Source: Puniceicoccales bacterium Verruco_02
GTDB lineage: Bacteria > Verrucomicrobiota > Verrucomicrobiia > Opitutales > Oceanipulchritudinaceae
Reading direction: 5' to 3'
Length of the DNA: 64,000 bases
NCBI GenBank assembly: GCA_001604585.1
Contig: LVBW01000003.1
Location: 520-64,519, forward strand
Shown in pieces: positions 14,698 through 37,626 of the stretch. A program made the translations under genes and the position numbers. The notes under the pieces are model-generated. The model was not told the DNA's origin, ran no database searches, and was given only the letters and a program-made list of their open reading frames with translations. How positions within the stretch are numbered: position 1 is the stretch's first letter; the number at the start of each line of letters is the position of its first letter.

Positions 14698-17256
14698 ATG
14701 CCAGTACACACCAAGTCCCGCACCCGCATGGGCCGCGCCGTCCTTGCCTCCATACTCCTGCGCCTTGCAACGGCCTCGGCGTCCCTCGCGCTTGCCAACC
14801 CGGCACTGTTGACGGCCCAGACGAGCCAGAACAGCGAGGCAAGCGCAGGCTTCCGCATCCCAAGGGAGATGAACGAACGCTTCCGGCAGGAGACGCGCCT
14901 AGTCGTGGACTACATGGCCAGCCGCCACTACGGCGACAAGGGGCTGGAAGAGATAGACCCCAAGGAAATGCTAAACGCCTACATGAAGGAGCTGGACTTT
15001 GCGAAGCTCTTCTTTGTGCAGGCCGACGTGGAAGCCACGCATCTGCGCTTTGCCGACACGCTCAAGAGCGAGTATCTGGGCAAGGGCAACCTTTACCCCG
15101 CTTTCGAGATATTCCGCAACTACAGGGAAAGGGCGCTCACCCGCCTAAGCTGGGTGTTTGAAAGGCTGAAGGGCGACTTCGATTTTTCCACAAACGAGAG
15201 CTACCGCCCCGACAGGCGCAAACTCGACTGGCCAAAGAACCAGCTAGAAGCGGACCTACTCTGGGAACGCCGCCTGACCTACGACATGCTCGACGGGCTG
15301 ATAAACGGCGAAACGCTGGACGCCACACGCGACAGGCTCGTACACCGCTACCAGCGCACGGAACGCTTCCTCAAGGAAATAGAGCCTTACGAGGTGGAGG
15401 AAATGTTCCTCAACAGCTTCACGACGCTCTTTGACCCGCACTCGAACTTCTTCAGCGTAGAAAGCGCGGACAACTTCAGCATAGCCATAAGCAACAGCCT
15501 TCAGGGCATTGGCGCAGTGCTCTCCAGCGAGGACGGCTACTGCGTGGTCCGCGAGCTTATGAGCGGCGGCCCTGCGGAACTGTCCGGTCAGCTCAACCCC
15601 GGCGACAAGATAGTGGCCGTGGGCCAAGGGGCAGATACGCCAGTCGATGTCGTGGACATGAAGCTGAACAAAGTCGTCAAGCTCATACGCGGGGCCAAGG
15701 GCAGCGAGGTGCGCCTTACCGTAGTCCCTGCGGACAAGCCCGGAGAGCGCAAGGTGGTGCGCATAGTCCGCGACGAAATCCGCCTTACAGAAAACCTCGC
15801 CAAGGGCTGGATGTACGAGGTGCCCACCCCCGAGGGGGATTCGCTGCCAGTGGGCGTCATCCACCTGCCCTCCTTTTACGGGCCGGGCATGGACGACAAC
15901 CCCGAAGCGCCAAGCACCACGCGCGACGTGGCCGAGCTACTGATAAAGCTCCAGGCCGAGGGAGCAGAGGCCATAGTGCTCGACCTTCGCAACAACGGCG
16001 GCGGCCTCTTGGGCGAGGCCATAATGATGAGCGGCCTGTTCATAAAGGACGGCCCCATCGTGCAGGTGCGCTACGACAACGGCAAGGTAAGGACCGACTT
16101 TGACAGCGACAACGGCTTTGTCTGCTACGACGGGCCGCTCGTGGTGCTCGTATCGCGCAACAGCGCCTCGGCAAGCGAAATATGCGCCGGTGCCCTTCAG
16201 GCGCTGGGTCGCGCAGTGGTCGTCGGCGACAGGACCACCCACGGCAAGGGCACCGTGCAACAGACAATGTCGCTCAACCGTATGCTCGCCTTCCGCAACC
16301 CCTTCTCGGCAAGCATCCCCTTGGGAATGCTAAAAATCACCATCCAGAAATTCTACCTGCCCGACGGAGCCTCCACCCAGAAAGAAGGCGTGAAAAGCGA
16401 CATCGTGATACCCAGTATCAACGAGTATCTGCCCATTGGCGAGAGCGACCTTGACCATGCCCTGCCCTGGGACAGCATCGCCCCGGCAAAGTGGGATCCG
16501 CGCAAAGTGATTGGCGAAGGCGGCGTGCGCGTGAACAAGGATCTTCTCGACACCCTGCAAAAAGGCAGCGCATCCCGCATGGAAACGATGCATGAATTCT
16601 CCTACCTCACCGAGGGCATAGAACGATTCCGCCAGAAGGATGCGCAAAAGGAAATCTCGCTCAACAGGGAAGAGCGCCTTCGCCAGCGCGAGGATGACCG
16701 CCTGTACCGCAATCGCATGGAAGACCTGCGCAACGAGCTGAAGGCCTCTTTCGCATACCCGCGCAGCGAGCTGCAACTGGCCCTTGCCAAGCAAAAAGAC
16801 GCCACGCATCAGCAGCAGCTTCGCGACACCCCCCTGCCCGACGGCCGCGCAAGAGCAGGCAGCTATTACCAGAAGATCTACTATCACGTTGACGGCGAAA
16901 GCGACATACACCCCGTGCGCGTGGAAGGCTTCGACTACGAAAGCGCCATGCGCCGCAGTGCGGAGATGGCCGCCGCCATGAGCAATGCACTGGGGAAAGA
17001 TATGCCCGAGGACAAGGCCCGCGACATACTGCGCGCATTCCGCAATTCCGACCCCGGCAGCGACTTCAACGTGGAAAAAGTGTTCCGCCTGTATCTGCCC
17101 GAACTCTCGGAAGCCGAACTCGCTGCCTTGCTGCCTCGCTTTTTCGCAAAACTAGTCGAGATAGACCCCGACGCCGTGGATCAAGACGCCGCCTTCGACG
17201 TACCCCTTCGCGAGGCCCTGCGCATAGCCGTGGACTGGGTTAACACGCTGCGATAG
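14698..17256 (+). CDS. prc: Tail-specific (C-terminal processing) protease, peptidase S41
   Basis: Signal peptide, PDZ region (GIGAVLSSEDGYCVVRELMSGGPAELSG), S41 core LDLRNNGGG...VVLVSRNSASASEI...THGKG, and a long C-terminal extension as in Prc/Tsp. Confidence 0.9.
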   Translation: MPVHTKSRTRMGRAVLASILLRLATASASLALANPALLTAQTSQNSEASAGFRIPREMNERFRQETRLVVDYMASRHYGDKGLEEIDPKEMLNAYMKELDFAKLFFVQADVEATHLRFADTLKSEYLGKGNLYPAFEIFRNYRERALTRLSWVFERLKGDFDFSTNESYRPDRRKLDWPKNQLEADLLWERRLTYDMLDGLINGETLDATRDRLVHRYQRTERFLKEIEPYEVEEMFLNSFTTLFDPHSNFFSVESADNFSIAISNSLQGIGAVLSSEDGYCVVRELMSGGPAELSGQLNPGDKIVAVGQGADTPVDVVDMKLNKVVKLIRGAKGSEVRLTVVPADKPGERKVVRIVRDEIRLTENLAKGWMYEVPTPEGDSLPVGVIHLPSFYGPGMDDNPEAPSTTRDVAELLIKLQAEGAEAIVLDLRNNGGGLLGEAIMMSGLFIKDGPIVQVRYDNGKVRTDFDSDNGFVCYDGPLVVLVSRNSASASEICAGALQALGRAVVVGDRTTHGKGTVQQTMSLNRMLAFRNPFSASIPLGMLKITIQKFYLPDGASTQKEGVKSDIVIPSINEYLPIGESDLDHALPWDSIAPAKWDPRKVIGEGGVRVNKDLLDTLQKGSASRMETMHEFSYLTEGIERFRQKDAQKEISLNREERLRQREDDRLYRNRMEDLRNELKASFAYPRSELQLALAKQKDATHQQQLRDTPLPDGRARAGSYYQKIYYHVDGESDIHPVRVEGFDYESAMRRSAEMAAAMSNALGKDMPEDKARDILRAFRNSDPGSDFNVEKVFRLYLPELSEAELAALLPRFFAKLVEIDPDAVDQDAAFDVPLREALRIAVDWVNTLR

Positions 17257-17304
17257 AGCTGCCCGTGAAACTTGCCCCCGCCCATCACGTTTACCCCGGT
17301 AGCG

Positions 17305-18174
17305 ATGATGAGTCCGGAACAAGTCAATGAAGCGATGCGCCGCTGCCCGGCGCTGTCGGTGGAGGCTGCGATAAAATTCCAGAGCGAGAGGGATCCTGCC
17401 CTCGTGCCTCAGATAGTGCTCGGCATAATCGAAAGGTTCGTCGAGCCGGACATGCGCGCCAAAGTGGCCGAGGCAAGGGACGAAACACGACTCTTCGACG
17501 ATCTGGGCATAGACTCGCTGATAATGGTCGAGATAGTGATGACCATCGAGCAGGTGCTGGGCGTAAGCGCGCCTGACGAGGAGCTGCGCGGGCTGCGCAC
17601 AATTGGCGATGTGAAGCTATACCTCGACGCCAAGCTGCGCGGCGTGGCCTACGACCCGGGCGCACCTCGTCTGGACCTTGCCGCCATAGCCGCCGCCCTG
17701 CCCCAGCAGCCCCCATTCCTCTTTTTGCAAACCGCCACCATCAACGCCGACGGGGCCAGCGGCAGCTACCACATAAGCGGGGACGAACCCGTGCTTCGGG
17801 GCCACTTTCGCGACGAGCCAGTGTTCCCGGCCTCGCTCATGATGGAGTCGCTCGGCCAACTGGCCGCCCTCTACCTCATAAAGAGCGGCAAGACGGAGTT
17901 CGCCGCCGCTGCGCAGACCGGAAAGGCATGGTTCATAAGCGCCGAAAGCGTCCGCTGTATGCGCATCTGCCGCCCCGGCGAAACCCTTTCCCTGAGCGTC
18001 AGACTGGTCCGCCAGCGCGCCCCACTGGCCGTATTTGCTGGCACAATAGATGTAGATGGCCAGCGCACGGCCAGCATAGAGGCCCTGACCCTCGCCTGCG
18101 GCCAGCTAGCCAGCCCCGCAGAGGCACCCGCCGTTGAAGAACCAGCCAGCGACAGCGCCAAATGCGAAGCGTAG
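17305..18174 (+). CDS. Acyl carrier protein domain fused to FabA/FabZ-like hotdog dehydratase
   Basis: N-terminal phosphopantetheine-attachment motif LFDDLGIDSLIMVEIV. C-terminal hotdog motif LRGHFRDEPVFPASLMMESLGQLAAL. The track start 17272 is TTG; I use ATG 17305. Confidence 0.7.
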   Translation: MMSPEQVNEAMRRCPALSVEAAIKFQSERDPALVPQIVLGIIERFVEPDMRAKVAEARDETRLFDDLGIDSLIMVEIVMTIEQVLGVSAPDEELRGLRTIGDVKLYLDAKLRGVAYDPGAPRLDLAAIAAALPQQPPFLFLQTATINADGASGSYHISGDEPVLRGHFRDEPVFPASLMMESLGQLAALYLIKSGKTEFAAAAQTGKAWFISAESVRCMRICRPGETLSLSVRLVRQRAPLAVFAGTIDVDGQRTASIEALTLACGQLASPAEAPAVEEPASDSAKCEA

Positions 18175-19421
18175 TAGCGAGCGGGCTGGGCTTTGTGACA
18201 TGCATTGGCAAGGGCAAGGCTGAAGTGGCCGACAGCCTGTGCAGGATGCGCCACGGCCTGTCACTTTACCCCCCCTTCGACAAGCCAGACTGCCCCGTGA
18301 AAGTGGTCGGACAGGTGAAGGGCTTTGAGGTTGACAGTATCGAGCAGGAGGACTGGACCCTGCCTGCGGACATGCCCCCCCTGCGTCTTGAGCAGCTGCG
18401 CAGCCTGCCCCCGCACGGGGCCTACGCCCTGCACGCAGTTGCACAGGCCATTGCGGACGCCGGACTGAGACCCGAAGACATTTCCAACCCCGCAACGGGC
18501 CTCTACACAGCCTCGGGCGGCTCCACCAGCACGCTATTTCGCCACCTTGAGAGGATGCACAGGATGGGGCCGCGCCGCTGCCCGCCCCAAGGCATAGTTT
18601 CCTCGATAGCGGGCACTCTCAATTTCAACCTCGTATCCTATTTCCGCATACTTGGCTCCTCAGCGGGCTTTGTATCGGCCTGCGCCTCCAGCGGACACGC
18701 CCTTGGCGCAGCCGTGGACGAAATTACACTCGGCAGACAGGAGCGCATGATCGTAGTCGGAGCCGAAGACTGCAACAGCGACACCATCCTGCCCTTCGCG
18801 GGCCTGCGCGCCCTGAGCACCTCTGCCGACCCCGACAAGGCCTCGCGCCCCTTCGACAAGGCGCGCGACGGCTTCGTGGGCACAGGCGGGGCCGTGGCAA
18901 TGATTATCGAGGACGAGGAAAGCGCCCGCAGACGCGGGGCGGAAATCTACTGCCGCATCAGGGGCTGGGGACAGGCCAGCGACGGCTATCACACCATGAT
19001 GCCCCACCCAAAGGGCGAAGGACTGGCCCGCGCAATGAAAAACGCCCTTGCCGCTGCTTCCGCCGCTAGCGAGGACATAGCCTACCTCAACGCTCACGCA
19101 ACATCCACACAGGCTGGGGACAGCGCCGAACTGCTGGCGATAAGGAGCGTGTTCGGCATGGGAAAATCGCCAGCCATCAGCAGCACAAAGGCCCTGACCG
19201 GGCACGGGCTGTCACTTTCCAGCATCATGGAGAACGCCTTCTGCGCCCTTGCACTCCAGGGGGGCTGGATGCCCGGCTCGGCCCATATCAGCGAGCTTGA
19301 CCCCGAATGCGCTGGGCTGGACATCTTGCGCGAAACGCGGGAAGGCGCATTCTCTCTTGCCATGAGCAACAGCAGCGGATTCGGAGGGGCGAATGTCAGC
19401 TTCGTATTCGAGCGGGTCTAA
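18162..19421 (+). CDS. Beta-ketoacyl-ACP synthase (KAS I/II type)
   Basis: Active-site Cys in SACASSGHALG, His motifs NAHATSTQAGD and LTGHGLSLSS, C-terminal SNSSGFGGANVS. Overlaps the ACP-DH stop by 13 nt. Confidence 0.9.
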   Translation: MRSVVASGLGFVTCIGKGKAEVADSLCRMRHGLSLYPPFDKPDCPVKVVGQVKGFEVDSIEQEDWTLPADMPPLRLEQLRSLPPHGAYALHAVAQAIADAGLRPEDISNPATGLYTASGGSTSTLFRHLERMHRMGPRRCPPQGIVSSIAGTLNFNLVSYFRILGSSAGFVSACASSGHALGAAVDEITLGRQERMIVVGAEDCNSDTILPFAGLRALSTSADPDKASRPFDKARDGFVGTGGAVAMIIEDEESARRRGAEIYCRIRGWGQASDGYHTMMPHPKGEGLARAMKNALAAASAASEDIAYLNAHATSTQAGDSAELLAIRSVFGMGKSPAISSTKALTGHGLSLSSIMENAFCALALQGGWMPGSAHISELDPECAGLDILRETREGAFSLAMSNSSGFGGANVSFVFERV

Positions 19422-20604
19422 CGAAGAGCCGCCACCAAGCGGGGCAAGGGTGCTCATACTCACCTCTTCCACTGGCGGAGGGCACGACAGCCGCGCCTAT
19501 TCCTTGCAGGACTGGCTGCTTCAGGCCGTAGCCGCACAGGTGCGCGTAGAACACCTGCTCGAAAACTCAAGCTGGCTGCCGCGTTTGGGGGTATGGATTT
19601 ACAACACGATCCAGAAAATCTGCCCCGGCCTGCACAATATCTACTGGTTCATCGCCGAGGGCTTTGCCCGGATGCAGGGCCAGAGGCTGTCCTTCGGGCG
19701 AGGCTACTATCACAGACTGCTGCTCGATTACCGCCCGCACCTTGTCATCAGCGTTCACGACTGTCTGAACCGGGGCTACTTTCAGGAGGCCAAGGCCCTG
19801 CTGGGCAAGGCCGTCCGCACCTGCACCTACTGCGGGGAGTGGAGCGGAGGCTTCGGCTTTAGCATGAACTGGCTGGAGCCTACGGCGGACCTCTACATCT
19901 CGCGCACAGGCGCAGCGCAGATACACGCCGTGGCCAACGGCATGGATCCGGCCCGCTGCGAGGTGTTCCGCAACGTGCTGCCGCCCCGCGCCTTTGTGGA
20001 CGCAATGCCCTTTGCCCGCCTAGCCGCCTTTCGCGCAGGTCTGGGGCTGGACCCGCACCGCTTCACCCTGCTTCTTGCCGCCGGGGCCGCGGGGGCGAAC
20101 AACCACGTGCGCCTGCTCGACAGACTGGCCACCATATCGGGCACCCAGGCCATCGCCTTTTGCGGACGCAGCCAGCGGGCCTTTGCAGCCATAAGCCGCT
20201 GGAAAGAAGCCCATCCACATTTTCCCCTGCATGTGGAAGGCTACTCGACGCGGGTTCACGAGCTTTTGCAGGCTGCCGACTGCGTGATTTCGCGCGGAGG
20301 GTCGAACACCACTGCGGAGGCCCTCTACCACGGCTGTCCGATGCTCTTCAACCGCATCGGCGGGGTCATGCCTCAAGAGAGGTTGACGCTGAACTACTTC
20401 ATAGGTCAGGGCGCGGCTCTGGGCTTTTCCTCGCCAGGCGAGTTGGAGCGCGTAGTGCGCCTGCTCTCAGCCAACCCGGACACTCTGGGCCTTATCAGGC
20501 GCAAGCTGTACTCCCTGCGCAGTCAGGATCACCCAAGGGCGCTTGCAAGACGCCTTCTCAAGCTGGCCGAAGAGGCCATGAACCCGGAGAACCGGGAGCG
20601 ATGA
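19393..20604 (+). CDS. MGDG-synthase-like / UgtP-like diacylglycerol glycosyltransferase (GT28)
   Basis: N-terminal VLILTSSTGGGHDSRAYSL typical of the MGDG_synth N-domain and a GT-B C-terminal half (ISRGGSNTTAEALYHGCPML). Overlaps the KS gene end by 29 nt. Confidence 0.78.
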   Translation: MSASYSSGSNEEPPPSGARVLILTSSTGGGHDSRAYSLQDWLLQAVAAQVRVEHLLENSSWLPRLGVWIYNTIQKICPGLHNIYWFIAEGFARMQGQRLSFGRGYYHRLLLDYRPHLVISVHDCLNRGYFQEAKALLGKAVRTCTYCGEWSGGFGFSMNWLEPTADLYISRTGAAQIHAVANGMDPARCEVFRNVLPPRAFVDAMPFARLAAFRAGLGLDPHRFTLLLAAGAAGANNHVRLLDRLATISGTQAIAFCGRSQRAFAAISRWKEAHPHFPLHVEGYSTRVHELLQAADCVISRGGSNTTAEALYHGCPMLFNRIGGVMPQERLTLNYFIGQGAALGFSSPGELERVVRLLSANPDTLGLIRRKLYSLRSQDHPRALARRLLKLAEEAMNPENRER

Positions 20605-21839
20605 AAGAGCAGGGCAAGGCAGGGCAAGGCAGCGGCAAAGGCCCTCTGGCCTACCTGTTCACGACTTTCGCTAGGCCCAGCGAGACCTTCCTGCGCCGCG
20701 AACTGGATGCGGTGCGAAGCCTTGGCGTGGATGTGCGGGTGGTGTCGCTCTGGGGCGGTGCTGGCGAGGGCGTCCGCACTTTTCCACTCGGGCAGATGCT
20801 GACGCTCATCTGGCGCTCCTTTCGCGAGCTAATCCTGCGCCCTGCCCCATACAGGGACTTGCTGGAGCATATGCTGGACCGCGACATCCCTAGCTGGCTC
20901 AACTTTGGCGAGAACTGGCGGGGCATTGGCTGCGCGATACTCCTTGCAAGGGAGCTGAAAGCGGCGCGCACAAGGCGCTGTCATGCCGTATGGGCCACAA
21001 TGCCCGCCGCAGCCGCATGGGTTCTGCATCACATTGCGGGCATTCCATACACGATGGGGGCGCACGCCTACGACATACACGAGGACGGCGGAGACTGGCT
21101 ATTGCCGCTAAAGCTGCGCGACGCCGCCCTTGTGCATTGCAGCAGCGAGGCCGCGTGCGAAAGAGTGCTGGCCCTTGGCTGCGAGCCGGGAAAAGTCGTA
21201 GTAATCCGCCGGGGACTTACGCATATCCCAGCAACACTCAAGCCCTTGCGCGAAGGCCGGGCGGCGCTGCCCCGCCTTGTAAGTGTGGGCCGCCTCGTGG
21301 AAAAGAAGGGCTACTGCGAACAGCTCCGCCTGTTGGCCGCCTTGGCCGAGGCCGGTCTGGACTTTGAGGCCGCCATCGTAGGCTCCGGCCCCAAGGAGGC
21401 GGAGTTGAAGGCGCTGGCTGCGCAGCTCGGTCTTTCGAAAAGGCTGCGCTTCACAGGCTGGCTGGACGAGGCGAGCGTCAACGCCGAGCTGGACCGGGCC
21501 GACGCCTTCATATTCACAGGCAAGGTGGCCCAGAGCGGGGACCGCGACGGACTGCCCAACGCCCTCGCCGAGGCAATGGCAAGGGGCCTGCCCGTATTAA
21601 CGACAAATGTCGGTGCCACGGCGGAGGTGATACGCAACGGCGAGAACGGATATATTCTGCCAATCGACGAGCCGGAGGCATGGTGTAAGGCACTCGATAG
21701 CATCTGCAATGACGATGCCTTCTGCGAAAATCTGCGCCGCCGGGCAAGGCGCTGGATAGAGGACAACTTCGACGCAATGGGCAACGCCGCAAAGCTGCTG
21801 CAAGAGGCCGAAGAGCGACTGGGCAAACAATCTGCCTAG
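20601..21839 (+). CDS. Glycosyltransferase family 4 (GT-B)
   Basis: Start set at ATG 20601 (MKEQGKAGQG...), overlapping the GT28 stop (ATGA). GRLVEKKGY and PNALAEAMARGLPVLTTNVGATAEVIRNGENGYIL (EX7E-type motif). The track ORF from 20160 is an out-of-context extension across the upstream gene. Confidence 0.8.
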   Translation: MKEQGKAGQGSGKGPLAYLFTTFARPSETFLRRELDAVRSLGVDVRVVSLWGGAGEGVRTFPLGQMLTLIWRSFRELILRPAPYRDLLEHMLDRDIPSWLNFGENWRGIGCAILLARELKAARTRRCHAVWATMPAAAAWVLHHIAGIPYTMGAHAYDIHEDGGDWLLPLKLRDAALVHCSSEAACERVLALGCEPGKVVVIRRGLTHIPATLKPLREGRAALPRLVSVGRLVEKKGYCEQLRLLAALAEAGLDFEAAIVGSGPKEAELKALAAQLGLSKRLRFTGWLDEASVNAELDRADAFIFTGKVAQSGDRDGLPNALAEAMARGLPVLTTNVGATAEVIRNGENGYILPIDEPEAWCKALDSICNDDAFCENLRRRARRWIEDNFDAMGNAAKLLQEAEERLGKQSA

Positions 21840-21905: not shown

Positions 21906-22517
21906 ATGTCACTGCAAAAGATTACCAGCGTAAGCGGCCGCGCCGTCCCCGTTCCCGGAGACGACATAGACACCGACCGCATCATCCCCGCCCGCTTCAT
22001 GAAGTGCGTCACCTTCGACGGGCTGGGCCAGTACCTATTTAACGATGTGCGCCGCCACGAAGACGGCAAGCCCAAGGGCCACAACATCGACAATCCCCGC
22101 TACGCCGGGGCCACGATCCTCATCAGCGGCAACAACTTCGGCTGTGGCAGCTCTCGCGAGCACGCCCCCCAGGCCATATTCTACGCGGGCTTTCGCGCCG
22201 TAATCGCCGAGGGCTACGCCGAAATCTTCTTCGGCAACTCCACCCAGCTGGGCATCCCCTGTGTGAGCCTGTCGCACGAAGACCGCCTCGCGCTGGAAAA
22301 GCTCGTGGAAGCCGCTCCGCAGACAGAGCTGCACATCGACCTTGAGAAAAAAGAGGTTCGCTTTGCCGACAAGGTTTTCCCTGCCAGCATTCGCGAGTCC
22401 GCCCGTTCGGGTCTTGTCAGTGGCCGCTGGGACCCCCTTGCGGACCTGCTCGCCGCTGCGGACAAGGTGAAAGACAAGGCCGCCTCCCTGCCCTACATGG
22501 CCGCCCCCGGCAAGTAG
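21906..22517 (+). CDS. leuD: 3-isopropylmalate dehydratase small subunit
   Basis: 203 aa: GRAVPVPGDDIDTDRIIPARFMK...ILISGNNFGCGSSREHAPQA. No leuC is adjacent in this window. Confidence 0.9.
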   Translation: MSLQKITSVSGRAVPVPGDDIDTDRIIPARFMKCVTFDGLGQYLFNDVRRHEDGKPKGHNIDNPRYAGATILISGNNFGCGSSREHAPQAIFYAGFRAVIAEGYAEIFFGNSTQLGIPCVSLSHEDRLALEKLVEAAPQTELHIDLEKKEVRFADKVFPASIRESARSGLVSGRWDPLADLLAAADKVKDKAASLPYMAAPGK

Positions 22518-22619: not shown

Positions 22620-23204
22620 ATGAAAGATCTTATCGAGGCCTGCGGCATATTCATATACCCGCTCGGCCTTTGCTCAATAATCGCCCTCTACATCGCTCTG
22701 GAACGGCTCATCGCCCTGCGCCCCGGCAAGGTGATACCCACGATGATCCAGAACGACATCATCGAGAAAAACAGCCTCCCTCCCGGCGAAGCTGACTCGG
22801 TGGCAGGGCGCATACTGCTCTTTCACCAGCAGCGTCACCCTGATGCAGACCAGATAAAGGCCTTCGGCAAAATGCAGGTGCTGGGCATGGAGCGTGGCAT
22901 GTTCCTGCTCGATGTGGTGATTAGCGCGGCCCCCCTGCTCGGGCTTCTGGGCACGGTGACGGGCCTTGTGCGCGTGTTTTCCCGCGTCTCGGCAGATACC
23001 GGAGTGCCGGAGCCGCAGGCATTTGTAACGGGTGTCTCGCTGGCCCTGTCAACAACGGTGCTAGGTCTTGCGATAGCCATCCCTGCGATGGTGTTCAACA
23101 GCTACCTTAACCGCCGCATCGAACTATTGGCTGCCCGCCTGAACGTGCTTGTCGAGCGAATCGTCACAATCGACGAGAAAACCAACGGCAAGTCCCGCAT
23201 ATGA
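22620..23204 (+). CDS. exbB: MotA/TolQ/ExbB proton-channel family protein
   Basis: 194 aa, three TM segments, conserved C-terminal region AAPLLGLLGTVTGLVRVF...ALSTTVLGLAIAIPAMVFNSYL. Confidence 0.85.
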   Translation: MKDLIEACGIFIYPLGLCSIIALYIALERLIALRPGKVIPTMIQNDIIEKNSLPPGEADSVAGRILLFHQQRHPDADQIKAFGKMQVLGMERGMFLLDVVISAAPLLGLLGTVTGLVRVFSRVSADTGVPEPQAFVTGVSLALSTTVLGLAIAIPAMVFNSYLNRRIELLAARLNVLVERIVTIDEKTNGKSRI

Positions 23205-23608
23205 GCCTCATGCCCGAACGGCGCCGCCGCAGGGCGGAAGTGAACATCGTGCCCCTCGTGGACGTCCTTACGACGCTCATCTTCTTCTTTCTAGTCACGA
23301 TGCAGTTCCGGCAGGGCAAGACGCTCAACATCACCCTGCCCGAGATACAGACCGCCGGCAAAAACACTCTCGAACAGTCTATCGACATAAGTATCAACGC
23401 CGAAGGCACATACTATTACAACGGTGCCGAAGTCAGCCCGCAGGAACTGGTGGGCCTTCTTTCCGCCTTTGGCAAAGCCGCCGACAAGCCCGCGCTTATC
23501 ATCAGGGCAGACGAAAACACCCCCCTGCGCAACGTGACCTTCCTTATGGACACCTGCCGCGCCACTGGCTTTGAAGATTTCCGCCTGCAAAGTCGCAACA
23601 GGCAATAG
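23201..23608 (+). CDS. exbD: ExbD/TolR biopolymer transport protein
   Basis: 135 aa: RRRRAEVNIVPLVDVLTTLIFFFLV then a periplasmic domain. ATGA overlap with exbB. Confidence 0.85.
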   Translation: MSLMPERRRRRAEVNIVPLVDVLTTLIFFFLVTMQFRQGKTLNITLPEIQTAGKNTLEQSIDISINAEGTYYYNGAEVSPQELVGLLSAFGKAADKPALIIRADENTPLRNVTFLMDTCRATGFEDFRLQSRNRQ

Positions 23609-23732
23609 CTCGGGCAGCGGCGCATCCAGAAAGCGGCCCGGCCTTGACTGCGAGCGAATTTTCCCTGCATATGGGAGTGCAGGACAAACATCAACGGCGC
23701 GCCTTTCGGGCACGCCAAACCCGTCAACGTCC

Positions 23733-24617
23733 ATGAAAGGTATGAGAATACCCGCTCTATGCCTGTTCTTCAGCCTTGTGGCCCTATGCAGTGCCACGGC
23801 TCAGGAAGTGCAGGATCAGGCCCCTGCGGCAAAGCCCGTGGTAGCCGTGGTGGATTTCAATGCAAAGTCCGCCCACATAATTATCGGAGAGAACATCAGC
23901 GGCTTTTCCTACACGGGAAAGTATGTGGATCTGCTCAACTCCGAGTTGATTAACGCCCTTGTTAACGACCGCAGCTTCGATGTCATAGACAGAGACCGCC
24001 TGAAGGAGCTTGCCAAGCAGAAACTGCTCAACGCCGCCACCACCCTCAACCTCTCAGGCGTTGGCAAGGCGGCCGGGGCGGACTACGTTGTGTGCGGAGA
24101 CATAGAACTGGTCGAGCTTAACAAACGCTTCCAGCAGTTCCCCGGATACAGCCAGACGCAGATGGTGGGCCGCATGGTGGTGAACCTGCGCGTTGTGGAC
24201 GTGAAAAGCACCCGCGTACTATTTGCCCGCAAGGTGAACAACGTCATCACAATGGTCCTCAACCAGTACAGCAGCGCCACTCCGGCCTCCTTCATGGAAG
24301 AGCTTAAGAGCGACACCGTGCGCCGCCTCGTAATGGACATTTCCGAAGGCATATCGCCCATACAGATACGCGCCGTCCACGGGGACAAGGTTTACCTCAA
24401 CCGCGGCGAACAGGCATTCAGCGGCGGAGAGCTGCTTGAAATAGTCATCCCCGTGGATACCGTTTACGACGAGGACGGCAGCATACTGGACGTAATCGAG
24501 GAAAAGGTCGGACAGGTGCGCGTGGAAACGGTGCGCCAGAAAATGGCCATCGCAGTAATCCTAGAACAGGAACGCCCCTTGCAGACCGGCTGGATAGCGA
24601 GAAGAGCGGAACAGTAG
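23733..24617 (+). CDS. CsgG/HfaB-family envelope protein with C-terminal beta-rich domain
   Basis: Start set at ATG 23733 (MKGMRIPALCLFFSLVALCSATAQE signal). VAVVDFNAKS...LNSELINALVNDRSFDVIDRDRLKEL...YVVCGDIELVE...VNLRVVDVKSTRVLFARKV aligns by eye with E. coli CsgG (VSVYNIQDETG...LVTALKDSRWFIPLERQGLQNLL...VNLRVVNVSTGEILSSV). Confidence 0.68.
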   Translation: MKGMRIPALCLFFSLVALCSATAQEVQDQAPAAKPVVAVVDFNAKSAHIIIGENISGFSYTGKYVDLLNSELINALVNDRSFDVIDRDRLKELAKQKLLNAATTLNLSGVGKAAGADYVVCGDIELVELNKRFQQFPGYSQTQMVGRMVVNLRVVDVKSTRVLFARKVNNVITMVLNQYSSATPASFMEELKSDTVRRLVMDISEGISPIQIRAVHGDKVYLNRGEQAFSGGELLEIVIPVDTVYDEDGSILDVIEEKVGQVRVETVRQKMAIAVILEQERPLQTGWIARRAEQ

Positions 24618-24676
24618 CGCCCGGCAGGAACGACCCTTTGATTGAAAATACTCCCAACCCATTCCAGCGTATCCCG

Positions 24677-26125
24677 ATGAAAACTCGTCCCCGGTACTGG
24701 CGGCAACTGCTGCCCCTGCCCTTCGCCGCCGCAGCCGCCCTGCTACTGGGTGCCTGCGCCTCCGGCACCAACTTCGCCAACGCCATAACTGGCTACTCCG
24801 GGCAGGCGCGCAACTTCCGTCAGGCCCTGACAAGCGCCGACCAGACTGCCGTGGAAAAGGAACTGCGCGGGCTGGAGGAAAAGTGCAACAGTGCCGACCG
24901 CATCCTCTACCTTCAGGAACGCGGACGCATACGCTCACTTAACGGCGACTTGCACGGCTCCATAGCCGACTATCAGGTGGCAAGCGACGCCTTTGAAAAC
25001 CAGCGCATGAAGGCCGTAGTATCGGCCAGCGACACCTTCTTTGCCGCCAGCTCTCTCGCCAGCAACGACATGGCCATTCCCTACTCCGGCTACGGCTTTG
25101 AGAAGGTGATGCTGCACAACATGCAGGCGCTAAACTACCTGCTTGCGGGCAAGGACGACTTTGCCCGCATCGAGCTGAACCGCGCCGACGTGGAGCAGAC
25201 CTTTTCCCTCGAACAACACGCCAAGCTGGCCCAAGAGGCCGAAAAGACCCGCGAAAAGGAGCAGATACAGCTATCCAGCAGCACGAGCGAGCTGGACAAG
25301 CGCAGCTCTCAGGCGGTGTTTGGCGCGACCTCGGTCAAAAACTCCTTCCAGAACGCCCTCACCTTCTACCTTCGCGGCAGCCTCTACGAAGACTCCCGCG
25401 ACTGGGACAAGGCCCTCATCGAGTACAAAAAGGCGCTCGACCTGCACCCCTCCAACCCCTTCGTCGCACAAGCGGCCATGCGCATGGCCGTCACCCTCGG
25501 CGACAAGCGCGAACAGCGCAACATCAACCGCCTGCACCCGGCCAAGCTTCGCAGCGAGGCAAAGAGCGATGGCAAGGCCCGCGTTGTAATCGTGTTTGAA
25601 AGAGGCTTTGTCCGCGAAAGGTCCACCTTCCGTCTGCCCTTCTTCTGGAAGGACAGCCTGCTGCAAGTGGCCCTACCATTCTACGACCTTGGCGGCTACT
25701 CCCAGGGCGCATCGCTGGAGCTTGCCACGGGCACTGAGACTGTGGACGCAGCCACCATAAGCAACCTAGACGCAATGGCCGTTCAAAGCCTTAAAGAGGC
25801 CTACCCGATGATTCTGCTCCGCCAGCTACTGCGCCTCATTGCCAAGCACAAGATGCAGGAAAAGGCCGACGAGCAAGGCTTTGGCGTACTGATGAAAATT
25901 GCCAACGTAGTAACCGACCGCGCCGACGACCGCAACTGGCTTACCCTGCCCGGCACAGTGCAGGTGGCGGAGCTTGTGCTGCCCCCCGGCAGGCAGGAAC
26001 TTAACCTGCGCTACATGGGTCTGTATCAATATGCCAGCGTGGAGCTGCGAGCCGGAGAGACCAAATACATAGTCGCCACCCAGCTGGGGCAGCGCCTTCT
26101 GCTGCGCGGGGCGGAAACAAAGTAA
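24677..26125 (+). CDS. TPR-containing lipoprotein
   Basis: Lipobox LLLGAC after MKTRPRYWRQLLPLPFAAAAA. TPR-like stretches (ALTFYLRGSLYEDSRDWDKALIEYKKALDLHPSNP). The track start 24638 is TTG; I use ATG 24677. Confidence 0.55.
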   Translation: MKTRPRYWRQLLPLPFAAAAALLLGACASGTNFANAITGYSGQARNFRQALTSADQTAVEKELRGLEEKCNSADRILYLQERGRIRSLNGDLHGSIADYQVASDAFENQRMKAVVSASDTFFAASSLASNDMAIPYSGYGFEKVMLHNMQALNYLLAGKDDFARIELNRADVEQTFSLEQHAKLAQEAEKTREKEQIQLSSSTSELDKRSSQAVFGATSVKNSFQNALTFYLRGSLYEDSRDWDKALIEYKKALDLHPSNPFVAQAAMRMAVTLGDKREQRNINRLHPAKLRSEAKSDGKARVVIVFERGFVRERSTFRLPFFWKDSLLQVALPFYDLGGYSQGASLELATGTETVDAATISNLDAMAVQSLKEAYPMILLRQLLRLIAKHKMQEKADEQGFGVLMKIANVVTDRADDRNWLTLPGTVQVAELVLPPGRQELNLRYMGLYQYASVELRAGETKYIVATQLGQRLLLRGAETK

Positions 26126-26132
26126 ACCAACG

Positions 26133-26612
26133 ATGAACAAAGCACTCATAAGTACCGTCACACTCGCGGCGCTGGCCCTCCTAGGGCCGGGCTGCGCAAA
26201 TGACAGCGGCTACGTGCCCATGGGGCAGTCCCGCGTAAGCGACCTTGGGGCGGCAGGCCTCAAAATCGTGGGCCGCATCGGCGTTGACGGCTCCATCACT
26301 GCGCCGGACAGCAACCTGCGCAAAATCCCCGGTCAGGACATCTACTTCGAGAACATCGCCGGACGTCGCTTGGCCAACGGCTTCACGGAAATATCCGTCG
26401 CAACGTCCAACAAAAGCTCACTTAACACGATCAACATCCAGTACAGCATACACTGGTACGACGCGCAGGGGCTGGAAATCCACCCCGAAAACGCAGGCTG
26501 GAGCACGCTCGTTCTCAAGCCCCGCGACATCGGGGCCATACGCGGAGTCTCGCCCACCAAGGACGCCGCCTCCGTAACCATACTCGTACGCGAAATAACT
26601 TACACCAAATAG
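26133..26612 (+). CDS. YcfL-like (DUF1425-like) lipoprotein
   Basis: Signal plus Cys (LALLGPGCAND). Body with IQYSIHWYDAQGLEIHPENAGWSTLVLKP resembles the YcfL pattern as I remember it. Confidence 0.5.
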   Translation: MNKALISTVTLAALALLGPGCANDSGYVPMGQSRVSDLGAAGLKIVGRIGVDGSITAPDSNLRKIPGQDIYFENIAGRRLANGFTEISVATSNKSSLNTINIQYSIHWYDAQGLEIHPENAGWSTLVLKPRDIGAIRGVSPTKDAASVTILVREITYTK

Positions 26613-26622
26613 GAATATAGAC

Positions 26623-27234
26623 ATGAAACTACGCTACGCAGCCGCCATCGCGGCCCTCGCCCTAGCCCTCACGGGTTGCGAAACCACCGGCCCGGTGCGT
26701 CAGGTATCGGCCACCGATGCCTCCCGCCAGAGCCTCGGAGTGGACCAGTCGGACGTGAACGCCACCGTGCAGCAGATGATTACGTCCATGTTCTCCTCGC
26801 CCGCCGTCATCCGCGCCACGGGGGACAAGATGCCCACCGTCGTAGTAGTGCCCATCCGCCTCGACACCAGCACAATCACCGACACTCGCATCAACACCGA
26901 CGCCATCACCACCCTAGTGCAGGAGCAGGTGATAAACTCCGGCCTCTTCCAGTTTGTCGATGCCAGCCGCAGGCAGGACATCGCGAGCGAAGTGGCCTAC
27001 CAGAACGAGTCCGGAATGGTGGACCAGAAAACGGCCAGCAAACGCGGCAAGCAGATAGGCTCTGACTACATTCTGGAAGGCAAGATAAGCGGCTTTGACT
27101 CCTACACGGGCAACACTCGCAAGAAGGGCTACGTCATCACCCTGACTCTTCAGAACGTCGAAACGGGCATCATCCTCTGGCAGCAGAGTAAGCAGATAGC
27201 CAAAGAGCAGACCCGCAGCAGCTTCGGCGGCTAA
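26623..27234 (+). CDS. LpoB-like lipoprotein (penicillin-binding protein activator family, COG3417-like)
   Basis: Lipobox LALTGCETT. VQQMITSMFSS...PTVVVVPIRLDTS...AITTLVQEQVINSGLFQFVD...GSDYILEGKISGF...YVITLTLQNVETGIILWQQ aligns by eye with the E. coli LpoB globular domain. Confidence 0.65.
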   Translation: MKLRYAAAIAALALALTGCETTGPVRQVSATDASRQSLGVDQSDVNATVQQMITSMFSSPAVIRATGDKMPTVVVVPIRLDTSTITDTRINTDAITTLVQEQVINSGLFQFVDASRRQDIASEVAYQNESGMVDQKTASKRGKQIGSDYILEGKISGFDSYTGNTRKKGYVITLTLQNVETGIILWQQSKQIAKEQTRSSFGG

Positions 27235-27259
27235 GAAACGACATTTCTCTCTTTGGCCA

Positions 27260-27293
27260 GGGAACCGGCCTTGCCGCAACGGTGGGCCGGTTC
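27260..27293 (+). terminator. Strong hairpin after the lipoprotein cluster (terminator-like, no T tract)
   Basis: GGAACCGGCC-N14-GGCCGGTTCC, a 10-bp perfect stem 26 nt after the LpoB-like stop. Confidence 0.35.
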
Positions 27294-27451: not shown

Positions 27452-29746
27452 ATGAAGCATACCCGTTTTGCGCTGCCTCTGGCAGCCTGCATCTTGCTTG
27501 CAGCCCCCGGCCTGTACGGATCCGATGCCTGCCCGGCAGGCAAGACACCCGGCCTAGCCTGTCAGAGTGCCCAAGGCATCCTGGCCCGCAGCGAACTCTC
27601 CGCCTATCACGGCTGGATCAAGTATCTATCCGCGCGCACCCAGCTCGACGCCGAACGCTTCGGCAAAGACAGTGGCGAAGCAATCGCCGCCAAGGCCCGC
27701 CTTGCCGAATGGACGGCAAAAATCGAGGCCGACCCCGACATCATCATGAAGCTGCGCGGCCCCCAGGAATGGGCCTACGTATCGAAGGCTGACGACAGCG
27801 GCCAACCCTTCCAGATCAACATCCCAACCGACTACGACCCCGCCCTCCCGACGCCAATCTCCATGTACTGCCACGGCTACAGCGGCAACCACATGGAATT
27901 TGCCCAGTACAGCCCCCGCACGGAAATGTTCGAGCTTTCAATACTCGGGCGCGCAAGAGGCGGCTTCTACACAGGCCTGTCGGAAGTGGACGTGATGGAC
28001 GTTATAGCCTACGTCAAGGAACACTGGAACATCGACCCGCTGCGCTTCCACATAAACGGCGGCAGCATGGGCGGCTGGGCCAGCTTCCGCTACGGCTCGC
28101 GCCACCCGGACCTATTTGCCAGCGCAAGGCCCACCTGCGGCTTCGCGATGCCCCTGCCCCTGTCCAACATGGTGGACCTGCCCGTTTACGTAACCCACTC
28201 CGACGACGACCCGGTGGTGGCCGTCGTGGAACAGCGCGGCCCCGTGCTGCGCCTGCGCGAGCTTGGCGGCATGGTAGTTGTGGACGAGACGACGGGACTC
28301 GGCCATGCGGCATGGGACTTTGCCGAAGGGAATGCCCGCGGCAACGAATGGGTAATCCGTCAGGTGGCACGCCCTGCAAAAGAGGTGCGCAGCATAGACT
28401 ACACCGCCACAGACGGCATGGCCACAGGCGCATGGTGGGCACATATAAGCGGCTGGGGAGCCGAGCAGCGCCCAGCCCGCTTCGTAGCCCGCGCAATGCC
28501 CGACAACAGTCTTTACATACGCGCAGAGAACATCTCCTCGCTGGACATCGACCTTGGCAAAGGCCCCTTCGACACCGCAAGCGACCTGTTCGTAAGCGTC
28601 AACAGCGGCATATTCCTGCGCCTGCCCTCCCCACTGCCGGAAAAGATTCGCCTTGAGGACAAAGGCGGCTGGAAAGTGGTGCAGCCCGTGACCGCCCCTG
28701 CCCGCCAACACACGCCCGGCGGCTGGACTCAGGTCTTTGACGGCAGCCTCATTCTGATAGTGTACGGCACAAAGGGCAGCTCGATAGAGAACGCCGCCAT
28801 GAAGGCCGCCGCCATTGCCGCCTCGAAAAGCCCGAACTGCTCCTGGCCCATCGACGACGCGGAACGCTCCGGCACGGACAAGGTTTCCCACCTTCAGAAC
28901 CTGTACGGGAGCCTGCCCATCAAGGCGGACAGCGAAGTAAGCGCCTGCGACCTTGCAAGCAGCAACATCGTGCTGATAGGCACGGCGACGCAGAACAGCC
29001 TTGCAGCCCGGCTAGAAGGCGGACTGCCCGCAAGCCTCGACAATAACGGCATCCGTACGAGTCGTGGCGAGAGCTTCCCAGCCAAGGGCACGGCGCTGGC
29101 CCTAGTATATCGCAACCCCGAGGCCCCACAGAACGTCCTTCTCTGGTATGCCTCGAACGATGCCGCCTTCTACGCCGCTGGGGCGCGCCTGCCCAAGAGA
29201 CTTTACGACCGAGGCCTTGGCGTGGATTTTGTCGTGGCAGGGGTGACAGGCGATGCCATCTACGCGGCCCGCAGCTTCGACAATGACTGGAACTGGCGCC
29301 GCGCAGAGGCCGAAAGCCCGCTTCTTGGCGCCGAGGTAAGGGACGCGGCAGCATCCGGCAGGCTGATAGCCGAGGCCTTCCGCGAGGCTATAGGGGCCGA
29401 CTTTGGAGTTGCTCCCAAGGCCACATCGACAGCCCTATTCCCCTGTCATGCGATAGGGCCGGTGCCGGGCCTTACCCGTTACGCCGATGCGGCCCTGTTC
29501 TACTACGCGGATCCCGTTTACAAGATGAGCCTTAGCGGGGCCGAGCTGCGCAAGATAGCGGCCAAGGGCACAACGCTGGCCTTCTCGCCCAGTCTGGACA
29601 CAGCATCCCTCGACGACGAAGCAATATACAGCGTCGCCTACGTCGGCGAGAGCACAAACTCCATCGTAGCCTGCGGAGTGCTGCCCCAGAAGAGCGAGTG
29701 GACGGGCATAATGGCAAAGGACGCCATCCTGAACGCCGCGAAGTAA
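27452..29746 (+). CDS. Secreted alpha/beta-hydrolase (esterase/peptidase S9-like) with large uncharacterised C-terminal region
   Basis: Signal peptide, nucleophile elbow INGGSMGGWAS, later VTHSDDDPVV and GLGHAAWDF (Ser-Asp-His candidates). I did not recognise the C-terminal ~400 aa. Confidence 0.62.
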   Translation: MKHTRFALPLAACILLAAPGLYGSDACPAGKTPGLACQSAQGILARSELSAYHGWIKYLSARTQLDAERFGKDSGEAIAAKARLAEWTAKIEADPDIIMKLRGPQEWAYVSKADDSGQPFQINIPTDYDPALPTPISMYCHGYSGNHMEFAQYSPRTEMFELSILGRARGGFYTGLSEVDVMDVIAYVKEHWNIDPLRFHINGGSMGGWASFRYGSRHPDLFASARPTCGFAMPLPLSNMVDLPVYVTHSDDDPVVAVVEQRGPVLRLRELGGMVVVDETTGLGHAAWDFAEGNARGNEWVIRQVARPAKEVRSIDYTATDGMATGAWWAHISGWGAEQRPARFVARAMPDNSLYIRAENISSLDIDLGKGPFDTASDLFVSVNSGIFLRLPSPLPEKIRLEDKGGWKVVQPVTAPARQHTPGGWTQVFDGSLILIVYGTKGSSIENAAMKAAAIAASKSPNCSWPIDDAERSGTDKVSHLQNLYGSLPIKADSEVSACDLASSNIVLIGTATQNSLAARLEGGLPASLDNNGIRTSRGESFPAKGTALALVYRNPEAPQNVLLWYASNDAAFYAAGARLPKRLYDRGLGVDFVVAGVTGDAIYAARSFDNDWNWRRAEAESPLLGAEVRDAAASGRLIAEAFREAIGADFGVAPKATSTALFPCHAIGPVPGLTRYADAALFYYADPVYKMSLSGAELRKIAAKGTTLAFSPSLDTASLDDEAIYSVAYVGESTNSIVACGVLPQKSEWTGIMAKDAILNAAK

Positions 29747-36468: not shown

Positions 36469-37626
36469 CTAGTACCTGAACGACGCACTGACCGAGAGGA
36501 TGCTGTTCTTGAAGTCAACAGACTGCTTGTTCGAGTCATTGTCGTTGTATGTATAAGCTACGCGGACGTTGAGATACTCATTGGGAGCGTAGGTCATGTA
36601 TGCACCAGCGGTGAGGTAGTTGTCATCGCGATCGCTGCTGTCTTCATACTCGGTCATGATGTAACCGAAGCTGCCGCCGAGATTGAACTGCTTGCTCAAC
36701 TTGTAGTTCGCGAAGGTGAGAACACCCGTGCGCAGGGTCGTGTTTGACGTTGTGGGCGACACGCTGTAACCACGCATCAGCTTGACGTTGAGGTCCACCA
36801 GGGGGGACATCGAATACATCAGGTTGCCTTCAAGGCTGATGCCATTCTTGTCGTCAAGGTTGCCGCGACCTTCGCGGGACATCCAGCCGACGCGGGCGGA
36901 GCCTGTCACCTTGGGAAGGATTTCTCCACGAAGACCAACCGTCAGGCGGGAGTCGATGGCGTCGGCAGAGTCGTTGTCACCGATCTTGACGGGGGAGTAA
37001 GAAGCACCAACAACGAGGTCCGTCTTGGCGGAAATGGCCATGAACAGGTCAACCGGGATTGTCAGCGTCGAGAAACCAGTGTAACCAGCGTTGACGTAGT
37101 TCTGGTCCGTGTAGGTAAAACCGGTGCCGAGCTTCGTCTTGGGGCTCACAGCGAGTTCGCCATATACGCCACCATTGACTTCGGAGCGGGAAACAAGGCC
37201 AGGCTCGAGGCTCGCGATGTTCAAGTTGTAAACATCGGTGTTACTCTGCTGCTCCACATAGCTCAGGAATGCCCTGCTGGTCAGACCTGCGCTCTTGTAG
37301 TTCACAACGGCGCTGAAGTCATCGTTCTCAGCGTTCAGATCCTTTTGGTCGTTGAACTCAATGATGTGATACTTGACAGCCACCTTGGCGTTGAGGGCTG
37401 CGCCCTTCTTGCCAATGTTCAGCTCAAGACCGGGAACGTACTCCATGGACAAGTCGGAGATCTCGCCAGTAGAGCGCTGGGTCACGTTGGACTCGCTCCT
37501 AAGTATGGCCTGACCTGTGACGTGTAGTTTGAGGCTGTCGGCAAGCTCGCCGACATCGGCCTGCGCTGTGGATACTAAGCCCAGTATGGGATAAAGGGCT
37601 ATTGAAAGCTTGGTAAGCGACTTCAT
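36469..37626 (-). CDS. Outer-membrane beta-barrel protein (exopolysaccharide-locus OMP type)
   Basis: Start at ATG 37626 (MKSLTKLSIALYPILGLVSTAQA signal). Alternating-polarity strands throughout and a terminal ...SVSASFRY aromatic C-terminus typical of OMPs. Confidence 0.6.
   Translation of the reverse strand: MKSLTKLSIALYPILGLVSTAQADVGELADSLKLHVTGQAILRSESNVTQRSTGEISDLSMEYVPGLELNIGKKGAALNAKVAVKYHIIEFNDQKDLNAENDDFSAVVNYKSAGLTSRAFLSYVEQQSNTDVYNLNIASLEPGLVSRSEVNGGVYGELAVSPKTKLGTGFTYTDQNYVNAGYTGFSTLTIPVDLFMAISAKTDLVVGASYSPVKIGDNDSADAIDSRLTVGLRGEILPKVTGSARVGWMSREGRGNLDDKNGISLEGNLMYSMSPLVDLNVKLMRGYSVSPTTSNTTLRTGVLTFANYKLSKQFNLGGSFGYIMTEYEDSSDRDDNYLTAGAYMTYAPNEYLNVRVAYTYNDNDSNKQSVDFKNSILSVSASFRY

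Follow-up and report, generated by a model that had tools for sequence, protein, structure and literature searches.

When genes for a proton-channel motor lie directly upstream of genes for envelope proteins, the arrangement raises the question of whether the motor works with those proteins or is merely their neighbor. Such an arrangement occurs in a 64,000-nucleotide stretch of contig LVBW01000003.1 of Puniceicoccales bacterium Verruco_02 (the whole stretch of DNA that was analysed, hereafter the window), where exbB and exbD are followed by genes for a CsgG-family protein, a large tetratricopeptide-repeat (TPR) lipoprotein, a YcfL-like lipoprotein, and an LpoB-like lipoprotein. An earlier annotation of the window from sequence alone (the original prediction) had tentatively read these six genes as either a linked motor–TPR–LpoB circuit or a lipoprotein complex built around a CsgG-like channel. 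Its description of six plus-strand genes in a row was accurate in every position, its family assignments were all borne out by the hidden Markov models (HMMs) of Pfam and NCBIfam, and the same six genes appear in independent gene calls of two public contigs that carry an identical LpoB-like protein. The best named homologues put the window in Opitutales (Verrucomicrobiota). The explanation that we favor, to which we assign a probability of roughly 60%, is that the region comprises two independent units, the exbB–exbD pair and a four-gene envelope module. We are highly confident of the evolutionary and anatomical part of this explanation, and hold its mechanistic part tentatively.

The TPR, YcfL-like, and LpoB-like genes form an ancient conserved module, the physical linkage of which goes far beyond chance. 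In a scan of one genome per species, the TPR family was carried by at least 562 species representatives, which included Opitutales, Phycisphaerales, Brocadia, Omnitrophota, and Desulfuromonadales/Geobacter, as well as many Gammaproteobacteria (Shewanella, Piscirickettsia, Oleiphilaceae), Hylemonella, and a Dongiaceae metagenome-assembled genome. We annotated the best 80 of these carriers with iterated HMMs built from the window proteins. At 77 of the 80 loci an LpoB-family gene came after the TPR gene in the same orientation (the other three were incomplete contigs), and these loci spanned Verrucomicrobiota, Planctomycetota, Desulfuromonadales, and Gamma-, Beta-, and Alphaproteobacteria. A YcfL-like gene stood between the two at 61 loci, and at 37 loci at least one CsgG/FlgT-like gene lay directly upstream of, inside, or downstream of the trio; this gene is an optional fourth member of the module. 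Lipobox-like motifs were found in ~85% of the three lipoprotein families (69 of 81 TPR, 51 of 62 YcfL-like, and 69 of 79 LpoB-family proteins) and in 4 of 46 CsgG-like proteins. All-vs-all clustering of the flanking open reading frames (ORFs) revealed no other recurrent neighbor beyond lineage-specific synteny, the flankers identified by sequence inspection being an ABC-F ATPase, peptide deformylase, LeuRS, aminopeptidase N, and the like. The TPR–YcfL–LpoB linkage noticed in the original prediction is therefore real, and the window module is the Opitutales version of an operon that is known from many phyla.

The loci also vary in their details. In some Opitutales relatives a small ORF without a Pfam match (83 amino acids in L083, at 9479–9730, and 58 in L087, at 9487–9663; L numbers are our locus labels) separates the TPR gene from the next module gene. 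The YcfL-like gene is missing from L087, L093, L094, and L095, from Shewanella, and from some Brocadia loci. Two different CsgG/FlgT-like genes stand in tandem between the TPR and YcfL-like genes in L038, L041, L044, and L054 (Geobacteraceae/Desulfuromonadales), and many Oleiphilaceae and other gammaproteobacterial loci encode, downstream of lpoB, a longer CsgG-like protein (330–450 amino acids) in which the domain begins near residue 160–235. Because of these tandem and post-lpoB genes, the optional fourth member has several subfamilies and positions.

The exbB–exbD pair, which looks like a housekeeping pair, is a unit separate from this lipoprotein module, and the module is independent of it. 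At the other 78 of the 80 loci no ExbB or ExbD was found within 10 kb of the module (iterated HMMs; phmmer --max, E<=10), the matches coming solely from the window's own copies and one Opitutales relative, and the trio is present without exbBD in Opitutia UBA3534 (L006). In GCA_016928295.1, which has the TPR protein closest to that of the window (63% identity), the four-gene module lies on contig 21 after a protein kinase gene, and leuD–exbB–exbD lies on contig 104, where it encodes an ExbB 86% identical to ours and is followed by a convergent gene. The module and leuD–exbB–exbD are likewise on different contigs in sample 3300033757 / GCA_030154545.1. One more distant Verrucomicrobiota relative has leuD–exbBD without the module, and another has exbBD with neither leuD nor the module. 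The module thus moves as a block, and leuD–exbBD remains together.

The complete order leuD–exbB–exbD–CsgG-like–TPR–(YcfL)–LpoB recurs in one Opitutales clade (the window, L004, L087, L093, L094, and L095), and on four further contigs the pair probably adjoins the module as well. In Opitutales leuD is the conserved left neighbor of exbB–exbD, which follows it in most contexts examined (in L090 the pair stands without leuD). ExbB orthologues are 86–87% identical in the closest relatives and 52–60% identical across Verrucomicrobiota, a conservation far above that of the lipoproteins. Because leuD shares the synteny and the two units separate as blocks, we regard the leuD–exbBD–module order as neighborhood inertia rather than a functional operon. 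Conservation of the six-gene neighborhood, the preset test of the original prediction, failed: the units split in two close relatives, and 78 of 80 loci have no exbBD.

The layout of the genes in the window (Table 1) agrees with this division. The exbB and exbD genes overlap by 4 nucleotides, and within the module the spacers measure 59 nucleotides (CsgG-like to TPR gene), 7 (TPR to YcfL-like), and 10 (YcfL-like to LpoB-like), the last two matching the tight 7–10 nucleotide spacing originally described. The longer gap that separates exbD from the CsgG-like gene is likely the boundary between two transcription units. The 10-base-pair hairpin described at the end of the cluster is present at 27261–27293 (GGAACCGGCC...GGCCGGTTCC); it has no U-run, its folding energy gives z = -1.94, and 6 of 200 shuffles fold equally well, leaving it a possible terminator of the module. 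Consensus scans for promoters and terminators over 21.8–27.6 kb returned counts equal to the shuffled expectation and are therefore uninformative for this phylum, and Rfam and tRNA scans of the window gave no matches.

Table 1. Features of the exbB–exbD pair, its left neighbor, and the envelope module (window coordinates).
Feature	Position	Strand	Evidence or remark
leuD (3-isopropylmalate dehydratase small subunit)	21906..22517	+	NF002458 E 3.9e-60
exbB/tolQ-family proton-channel subunit, 194 aa	22620..23204	+	PF01618 E 1.3e-22
exbD/tolR-family subunit, 135 aa	23201..23608	+	PF02472 E 5.3e-29
Spacer between exbD and CsgG-like gene, 124 nt	23609..23732	+	longest gap of the string
FlgT-like/CsgG-family periplasmic protein, 294 aa	23733..24617	+	PF03783 E 6.5e-15
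Large TPR lipoprotein, Cj0089/HP0018 type, 482 aa	24677..26125	+	lipobox LLLGAC; one TPR_2 match
YcfL-like (DUF1425) small Ig-fold lipoprotein, Cj0090 type, 159 aa	26133..26612	+	PF07233 E 1.1e-14
LpoB-family outer-membrane lipoprotein, Cj0091/HP1457 type, 203 aa	26623..27234	+	PF13036 E 4.2e-34; lipobox LTGC
GC-rich hairpin closing the module	27261..27293	+	10-bp outer stem and inner stem

The family of the TPR protein (~480 amino acids) is well conserved over its full length, and a profile search of 1.84 billion representatives returned 1753 clusters of it (50% identity) at E<=1e-30. The lipobox assigned to it (LLLGAC) is confirmed, its cysteine being invariant in one family alignment (A1) and near-invariant in another (A2), and the polar motifs ERGR, NDxAIPY, SFQN, and ADxRSWLTLP are invariant in the family. 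The structural model (predicted local distance difference test score, pLDDT, 90; predicted template-modelling score, pTM, 0.89) has a helical-repeat half extending to about residue 290, followed by a beta sheet, two long helices, and a C-terminal beta sandwich. Foldseek matched it in the PDB to generic TPR proteins with TM-scores of at most 0.32 that covered the TPR half alone, and the C-terminal half had no Pfam match at E<=10 and no known fold match. The protein shares one generic TPR motif with TPR proteins, and its match to the NCBIfam model of a CpoB-like vesicle lipoprotein is weak, at 21 of 250 bits and far below the cut-off. It is a distinct family, unrelated to CpoB, and the CpoB analogy of the original prediction is not borne out. 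Elsewhere in the window, a 420-amino-acid multi-TPR protein (62065–63327, minus strand) with a weak, below-cut-off match to the YfiO/BamD family (E 2.4e-4) may be the BamD-like lipoprotein of this organism.

Counterparts of the trio have been studied in Campylobacter and Helicobacter. The genes cj0089–cj0090–cj0091 encode three lipoproteins of 453, 122, and 207 amino acids, of which Cj0089 is a TPR protein reported to be similar to Shewanella TPR proteins (PMC3100323). In our species scan these Shewanella proteins belong to the TPR family of the window, and, with the TPR member linked indirectly in this way, the window trio is the same kind of operon as cj0089–cj0090–cj0091. The same study placed Cj0091 in the outer membrane, found Cj0089 in the inner-membrane fraction, and saw weaker adherence to INT 407 cells and slower chick colonization in a cj0091 mutant (PMC3100323). 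The Helicobacter homologues of Cj0089 and LpoB, HP0018 and HP1457, are often encoded by neighboring genes; H. pylori without HP0018 hypervesiculates, and MltD and AmiA co-immunoprecipitate with HP0018 (PMC11394524).

The remaining two lipoproteins connect the module to Escherichia coli. The YcfL-like protein was assigned to the right family, although its lipobox, LLGPGC, is non-canonical; the cysteine is nevertheless invariant across the family. The family profile (A4) matched PDB entry 3o0l, a structural-genomics DUF1425 structure, at E 1.5e-23, and 4GIO, which is Cj0090 (PMC7857515), at E 9.8e-7. The LpoB-like protein scored 143 bits against TIGR02722, passing the cut-off of 110, and its profile matched PDB LpoB at E 3.8e-11 and E. 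coli and Salmonella LpoB at ~1e-10. When the two families were aligned by hhalign to E. coli YcfL and LpoB, the probabilities were 97.1% and 97.8%, respectively. In E. coli K-12, ycfL (DUF1425) lies 13 nucleotides upstream of lpoB on the same strand, which verifies an adjacency that the original prediction had cited. Because both E. coli proteins are homologous to families of the module, ycfL–lpoB looks, from these alignments, like a reduced form or remnant of it.

Homology to LpoB does not extend to the linker. E. coli LpoB activates penicillin-binding protein 1B (PBP1B), which its long linker allows it to reach. That linker has 58 residues, 28% of them proline, compared with a tether between cysteine and domain of 20 residues in the window protein and a conserved median of 20 in its family (range 19–32; 0% proline; n = 67). 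Thus, the lipoprotein carries the LpoB fold and has no long proline-rich linker of the E. coli kind. Because the tether is short, conserved, and proline-free, a mechanism identical to that of E. coli LpoB is unlikely in the module, and the PBP1B-activator role suggested by the original prediction is not supported.

The most likely role of the module is envelope or peptidoglycan maintenance by an outer-membrane-anchored periplasmic complex, as we infer from the LpoB precedent together with the phenotypes and interactors of HP0018. The three lipoproteins, each with its lipid anchor, and the FlgT-like protein would assemble into one complex at the periplasmic face of the outer membrane. This complex might be oligomeric, because several proteins of the same fold (FlgT, CsgG, and PelC) build rings, and it may bridge towards the inner membrane if the fractionation of Cj0089 is general. 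As a scaffold or regulator of enzymes that remodel peptidoglycan, it would help to coordinate that layer with the outer membrane, and it would neither form a channel nor take any proton-motive drive. Searches of the literature on DUF1425, on DUF799/DUF4810/GNA1162, and on CsgG-like proteins together with LpoB found no mechanistic account.

Several observations weigh against this explanation as a whole. The adjacency of exbBD and the module is common within one Opitutales clade, being direct in six organisms (the window and five relatives). The YcfL-like and FlgT-like genes are dispensable in many lineages. The short tether of the LpoB-like protein argues against an E. coli–style reach to a PBP of the inner membrane. 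The phenotypes are modest and come from distant Campylobacterota, and the cj0089 mutant had no adherence or colonization defect.

In one rival reading, with no motor involved, a class A PBP would be activated directly by the LpoB-like lipoprotein as in E. coli, and the TPR protein would tune this activation in the way that CpoB does. The LpoB-like protein passes the LpoB equivalog cut-off and is homologous to E. coli LpoB, the ycfL–lpoB adjacency is common to E. coli, and a peptidoglycan-related role has been proposed for HP0018 (PMC11394524). Against this, the 20-residue proline-free tether probably lacks the length to span the peptidoglycan and contact a PBP in the inner membrane, and the TPR protein has no CpoB-specific similarity save the one match far below threshold. 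No PBP gene occurs in the window or recurs near the module, and to our knowledge the UB2H docking domain of PBP1B is largely confined to Gammaproteobacteria. We therefore consider direct activation of this kind unlikely, and continue to prefer a complex that scaffolds or regulates remodelling enzymes.

The circuit of the original prediction would couple the same proteins to the motor, with a TonB-less ExbBD stator energizing or sensing a complex of the FlgT-like, TPR, and LpoB-like proteins in this Opitutales clade, in the manner of Tol–CpoB–LpoB or of Vibrio PomAB–MotX–FlgT. Vibrio FlgT helps to recruit stator-associated rings, and the fourth module protein is FlgT-like. Moreover, the same-strand adjacency persists in relatives whose TPR proteins are ~50–58% identical to that of the window, and the absence of a TonB or TolA gene after exbD was upheld and extends to the whole window: no large ORF of the 64 kb had a Pfam match to a TonB_C, TolA, TolB, Pal, or PBP domain. 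None of TonB_C, TolA, TolB, and Pal was found beside the orthologous exbBD pairs of relatives either. ExbB scored under the NCBIfam equivalog cut-offs of exbB, tolQ, and motA alike, and ExbD matched tolR best, at 55 bits and also under its cut-off. The partner of ExbBD need not be the module, and both partner and substrate may be encoded elsewhere in the genome.

What makes this motor circuit improbable is the behavior of the two units. Two genomes of the same clade split them with leuD–exbBD intact, orthologous exbBD pairs occur elsewhere in Verrucomicrobiota without an adjoining module, and at least 78 further species carry the module with no ExbBD inside 10 kb. The inclusion of leuD in the same synteny points to inertia rather than selection for an operon, and within the one clade to which the adjacency is limited leuD travels along. 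The 124-nucleotide gap is the longest of the string, and a terminator-like hairpin with a U-run directly follows exbD in the relatives L093 (z -2.0) and L088 (z -1.9). These signals are weak, and the corresponding spacer of the window itself folds no better than its shuffles. A narrower version, in which an ancestrally leuD-linked, TonB-less ExbB–ExbD stator was recruited in one Opitutales clade to power or gate the FlgT-like/TPR/LpoB-like complex, is quite improbable too; if true, it would define a non-flagellar envelope machine driven by the proton-motive force, akin to stator–FlgT–MotX or Tol–CpoB–LpoB.

A conserved element was also noticed right after exbD. It is common to L094, which has the adjacency, and L088, which does not, and reads ...GGA(A/C)(C/U)UCCCGUCGGAA(C/U)GCG(U/G)GCGUCUUUUCGG (L088 6834–6920, L094 4731–4800, and L093 3127–3190). 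In L088 and L093 it takes the form of a hairpin and then a U-run, and may be the terminator of exbBD.

The lipoproteins might instead be surface-exposed adhesion factors, as proposed for Cj0091, the mutant of which has adherence and chick-colonization defects (PMC3100323). We think this very unlikely: the module is kept in free-living lineages (Opitutales, Brocadia, Geobacter, and Shewanella), the folds are those usually seen in ring or scaffold proteins of the periplasm, and the adhesion defect of the cj0091 mutant could be an indirect effect on the envelope.

The protein that suggested a channel is better understood as a FlgT-like protein. Its match to PF03783 covers profile positions 3–150 of 210, leaving the C-terminal third unmatched, and its AlphaFold model (pLDDT 80) combines an N-terminal alpha/beta domain of the CsgG/LpoB/TolB-N type with a C-terminal FlgT_C-like beta domain, the extra beta domain that the original prediction had described. 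Foldseek aligned the model over 293 columns to FlgT (3w1e, E 3.1e-16; the FlgT chain of the LPHT ring, 8z5n, E 2.1e-16) and over ~210 columns to CsgG (E 6e-8), with lower matches to LpoB, GNA1162, HpaA, TolB-N, and LptE, all of the same small alpha/beta fold. Sub-threshold Pfam matches to FlgT_C recur in three homologues, and the C-terminal domain weakly resembles, in sequence, the TsaP-like LysM protein of 6ve2. The N-terminus is an ordinary signal peptide with an A-x-A signal-peptidase I site, the cysteine within it being conserved in none of the 16 closest homologues, which corrects the original reading. At what we take to be the site of the second transmembrane hairpin of CsgG, a loop of just 7 residues connects the last strand of the model to the helix after it, and the tip of the one long beta hairpin is polar and conserved (QxFPGYSQTQ). 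The features of a CsgG pore are thus missing, the window contains no csgE, csgF, csgA, or csgB and no flagellar genes, and we conclude that the protein is a soluble periplasmic member of the ring-building FlgT/CsgG/LpoB fold class.

A secretion system in which this protein forms a pore in the outer membrane, with the lipoproteins either assisting it or being exported through it, as the above-threshold Pfam match (E 6.5e-15) and the label "curli ... channel CsgG" given to homologues by several sources would have it, deserves hardly any credence, given that the match is partial, that there is no conserved lipidated cysteine, that a 7-residue loop replaces the second transmembrane hairpin and the long-hairpin tip is polar and conserved, that FlgT is a far better full-length structural match, and that fewer than half of the modules have the gene. 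The CsgG-like channel of the original prediction is accordingly set aside. We also rejected a PelB/PelC-like polysaccharide export pair, for which the similarity to PelC was marginal (E 0.13; entries 5T10 and 5T11, which we take to be PelC), no porin domain was present, and no pel genes lay nearby.

With the tempting links to ExbBD motors and CsgG-type secretion removed, the module can be considered in its own right. The usual account of LpoB makes it an invention of enterobacteria that serves to activate PBP1B; the neighborhood data point instead to a much older, multi-phylum operon, and the derivation of LpoB and YcfL from a pan-phylum TPR–YcfL–LpoB(–FlgT-like) module is the point of general interest beyond this window. 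The hypervesiculation, adherence, and colonization phenotypes in Helicobacter and Campylobacter are clues to the role of that operon. Its function, once solved, would explain E. coli ycfL and the origin of LpoB, and might bring to light a general system for coordinating peptidoglycan with the outer membrane.

Other parts of the window hold loci of separate interest. Directly upstream of leuD, a plus-strand run (17272–21839) encodes a fusion of an acyl carrier protein (PP-binding) with a FabA-like dehydratase (weak ApeI-like match), a ketoacyl synthase, and two glycosyltransferases; with a gene for a tail-specific protease before it (14698–17256), the run resembles a small lipid/glycolipid or aryl-polyene-like biosynthesis cluster. 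Directly downstream of the module lies a gene for a secreted, esterase-like protein of 764 amino acids (27452–29746), whose weak matches to esterase, polyhydroxybutyrate (PHB)-depolymerase, and prolyl-oligopeptidase families are all below cut-off and which is not conserved beside the module in relatives. The segment 33414–46077, with a G+C content of 52–57% compared with ~60%, resembles an exopolysaccharide or exosortase-type locus: it encodes a Wzz/GNVR chain-length regulator of the tyrosine-kinase type (33414–35699, minus strand), a BBP2_2 beta-barrel (36469–37755, minus strand), a large TPR protein (37799–39559, plus strand), phosphoglucomutase, three ORFs without a Pfam match, and a PEP-CTERM protein (45286–46077, minus strand). 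Finally, the segment 49137–52856 encodes a STAND/AAA_16 NTPase (49137–50330) and, after it, a fusion of a Ser/Thr protein kinase with an FGE-sulfatase (formylglycine-generating enzyme-like) domain (50388–52856).

Comparison with known systems places the module among them. As in the Tol-Pal/CpoB/LpoB–PBP1B system, a MotA/ExbB-family motor, a TPR protein, and an LpoB-family lipoprotein stand side by side in the window; here, however, the link to the motor is clade-specific synteny, TolA, TolB, and Pal are missing, and the TPR family is unrelated. CpoB (YbgF) is a periplasmic protein with a coiled coil and a C-terminal TPR region encoded in the tol-pal operon, whereas the window protein is a 482-amino-acid lipoprotein with a beta-rich C-terminal half. 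CsgG has the N-terminal alpha/beta fold in common with its window counterpart, which matches the Pfam family above threshold but differs in having no lipid anchor, no second transmembrane hairpin, and an additional FlgT_C-like domain.

The flagellar H-ring protein FlgT of Vibrio resembles that same window protein in pairing an alpha/beta domain of the middle type with a beta domain at the C-terminus, and in being periplasmic and not lipidated. Identity is only 13–14%, and TM-scores are 0.29–0.39, so that the relationship holds at the domain level only. The window protein also lacks the FlgT N-terminal domain, its Pfam matches to FlgT_M and FlgT_C are sub-threshold, and the module has no flagellar gene context and occurs in Piscirickettsia, which is not known to be motile. 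The protein therefore resembles FlgT at the domain level and yet is no member of the FlgT family.

The E. coli ycfL–lpoB operon has in common with the module adjacent same-strand DUF1425 and LpoB genes, both homologous to module proteins, and differs in having neither a TPR partner gene nor a FlgT-like gene; the beta-hairpin of the LpoB-like proteins of the module is longer than in E. coli LpoB, and their C-terminal tail is conserved (EKEIRKT..KSLFG). In cj0089–cj0090–cj0091, regulation by CmeR and the role in host adherence are specific to Campylobacter, and the Opitutales copy has an upstream FlgT/CsgG-like gene and adjoins exbBD. The two operons nevertheless share one order, a TPR lipoprotein (~450–480 amino acids), a small immunoglobulin-fold lipoprotein, and an LpoB-family lipoprotein (~205 amino acids), with lipoboxes on all three proteins and sizes of 482, 159, and 203 amino acids in the window compared with 453, 122, and 207 in Campylobacter.

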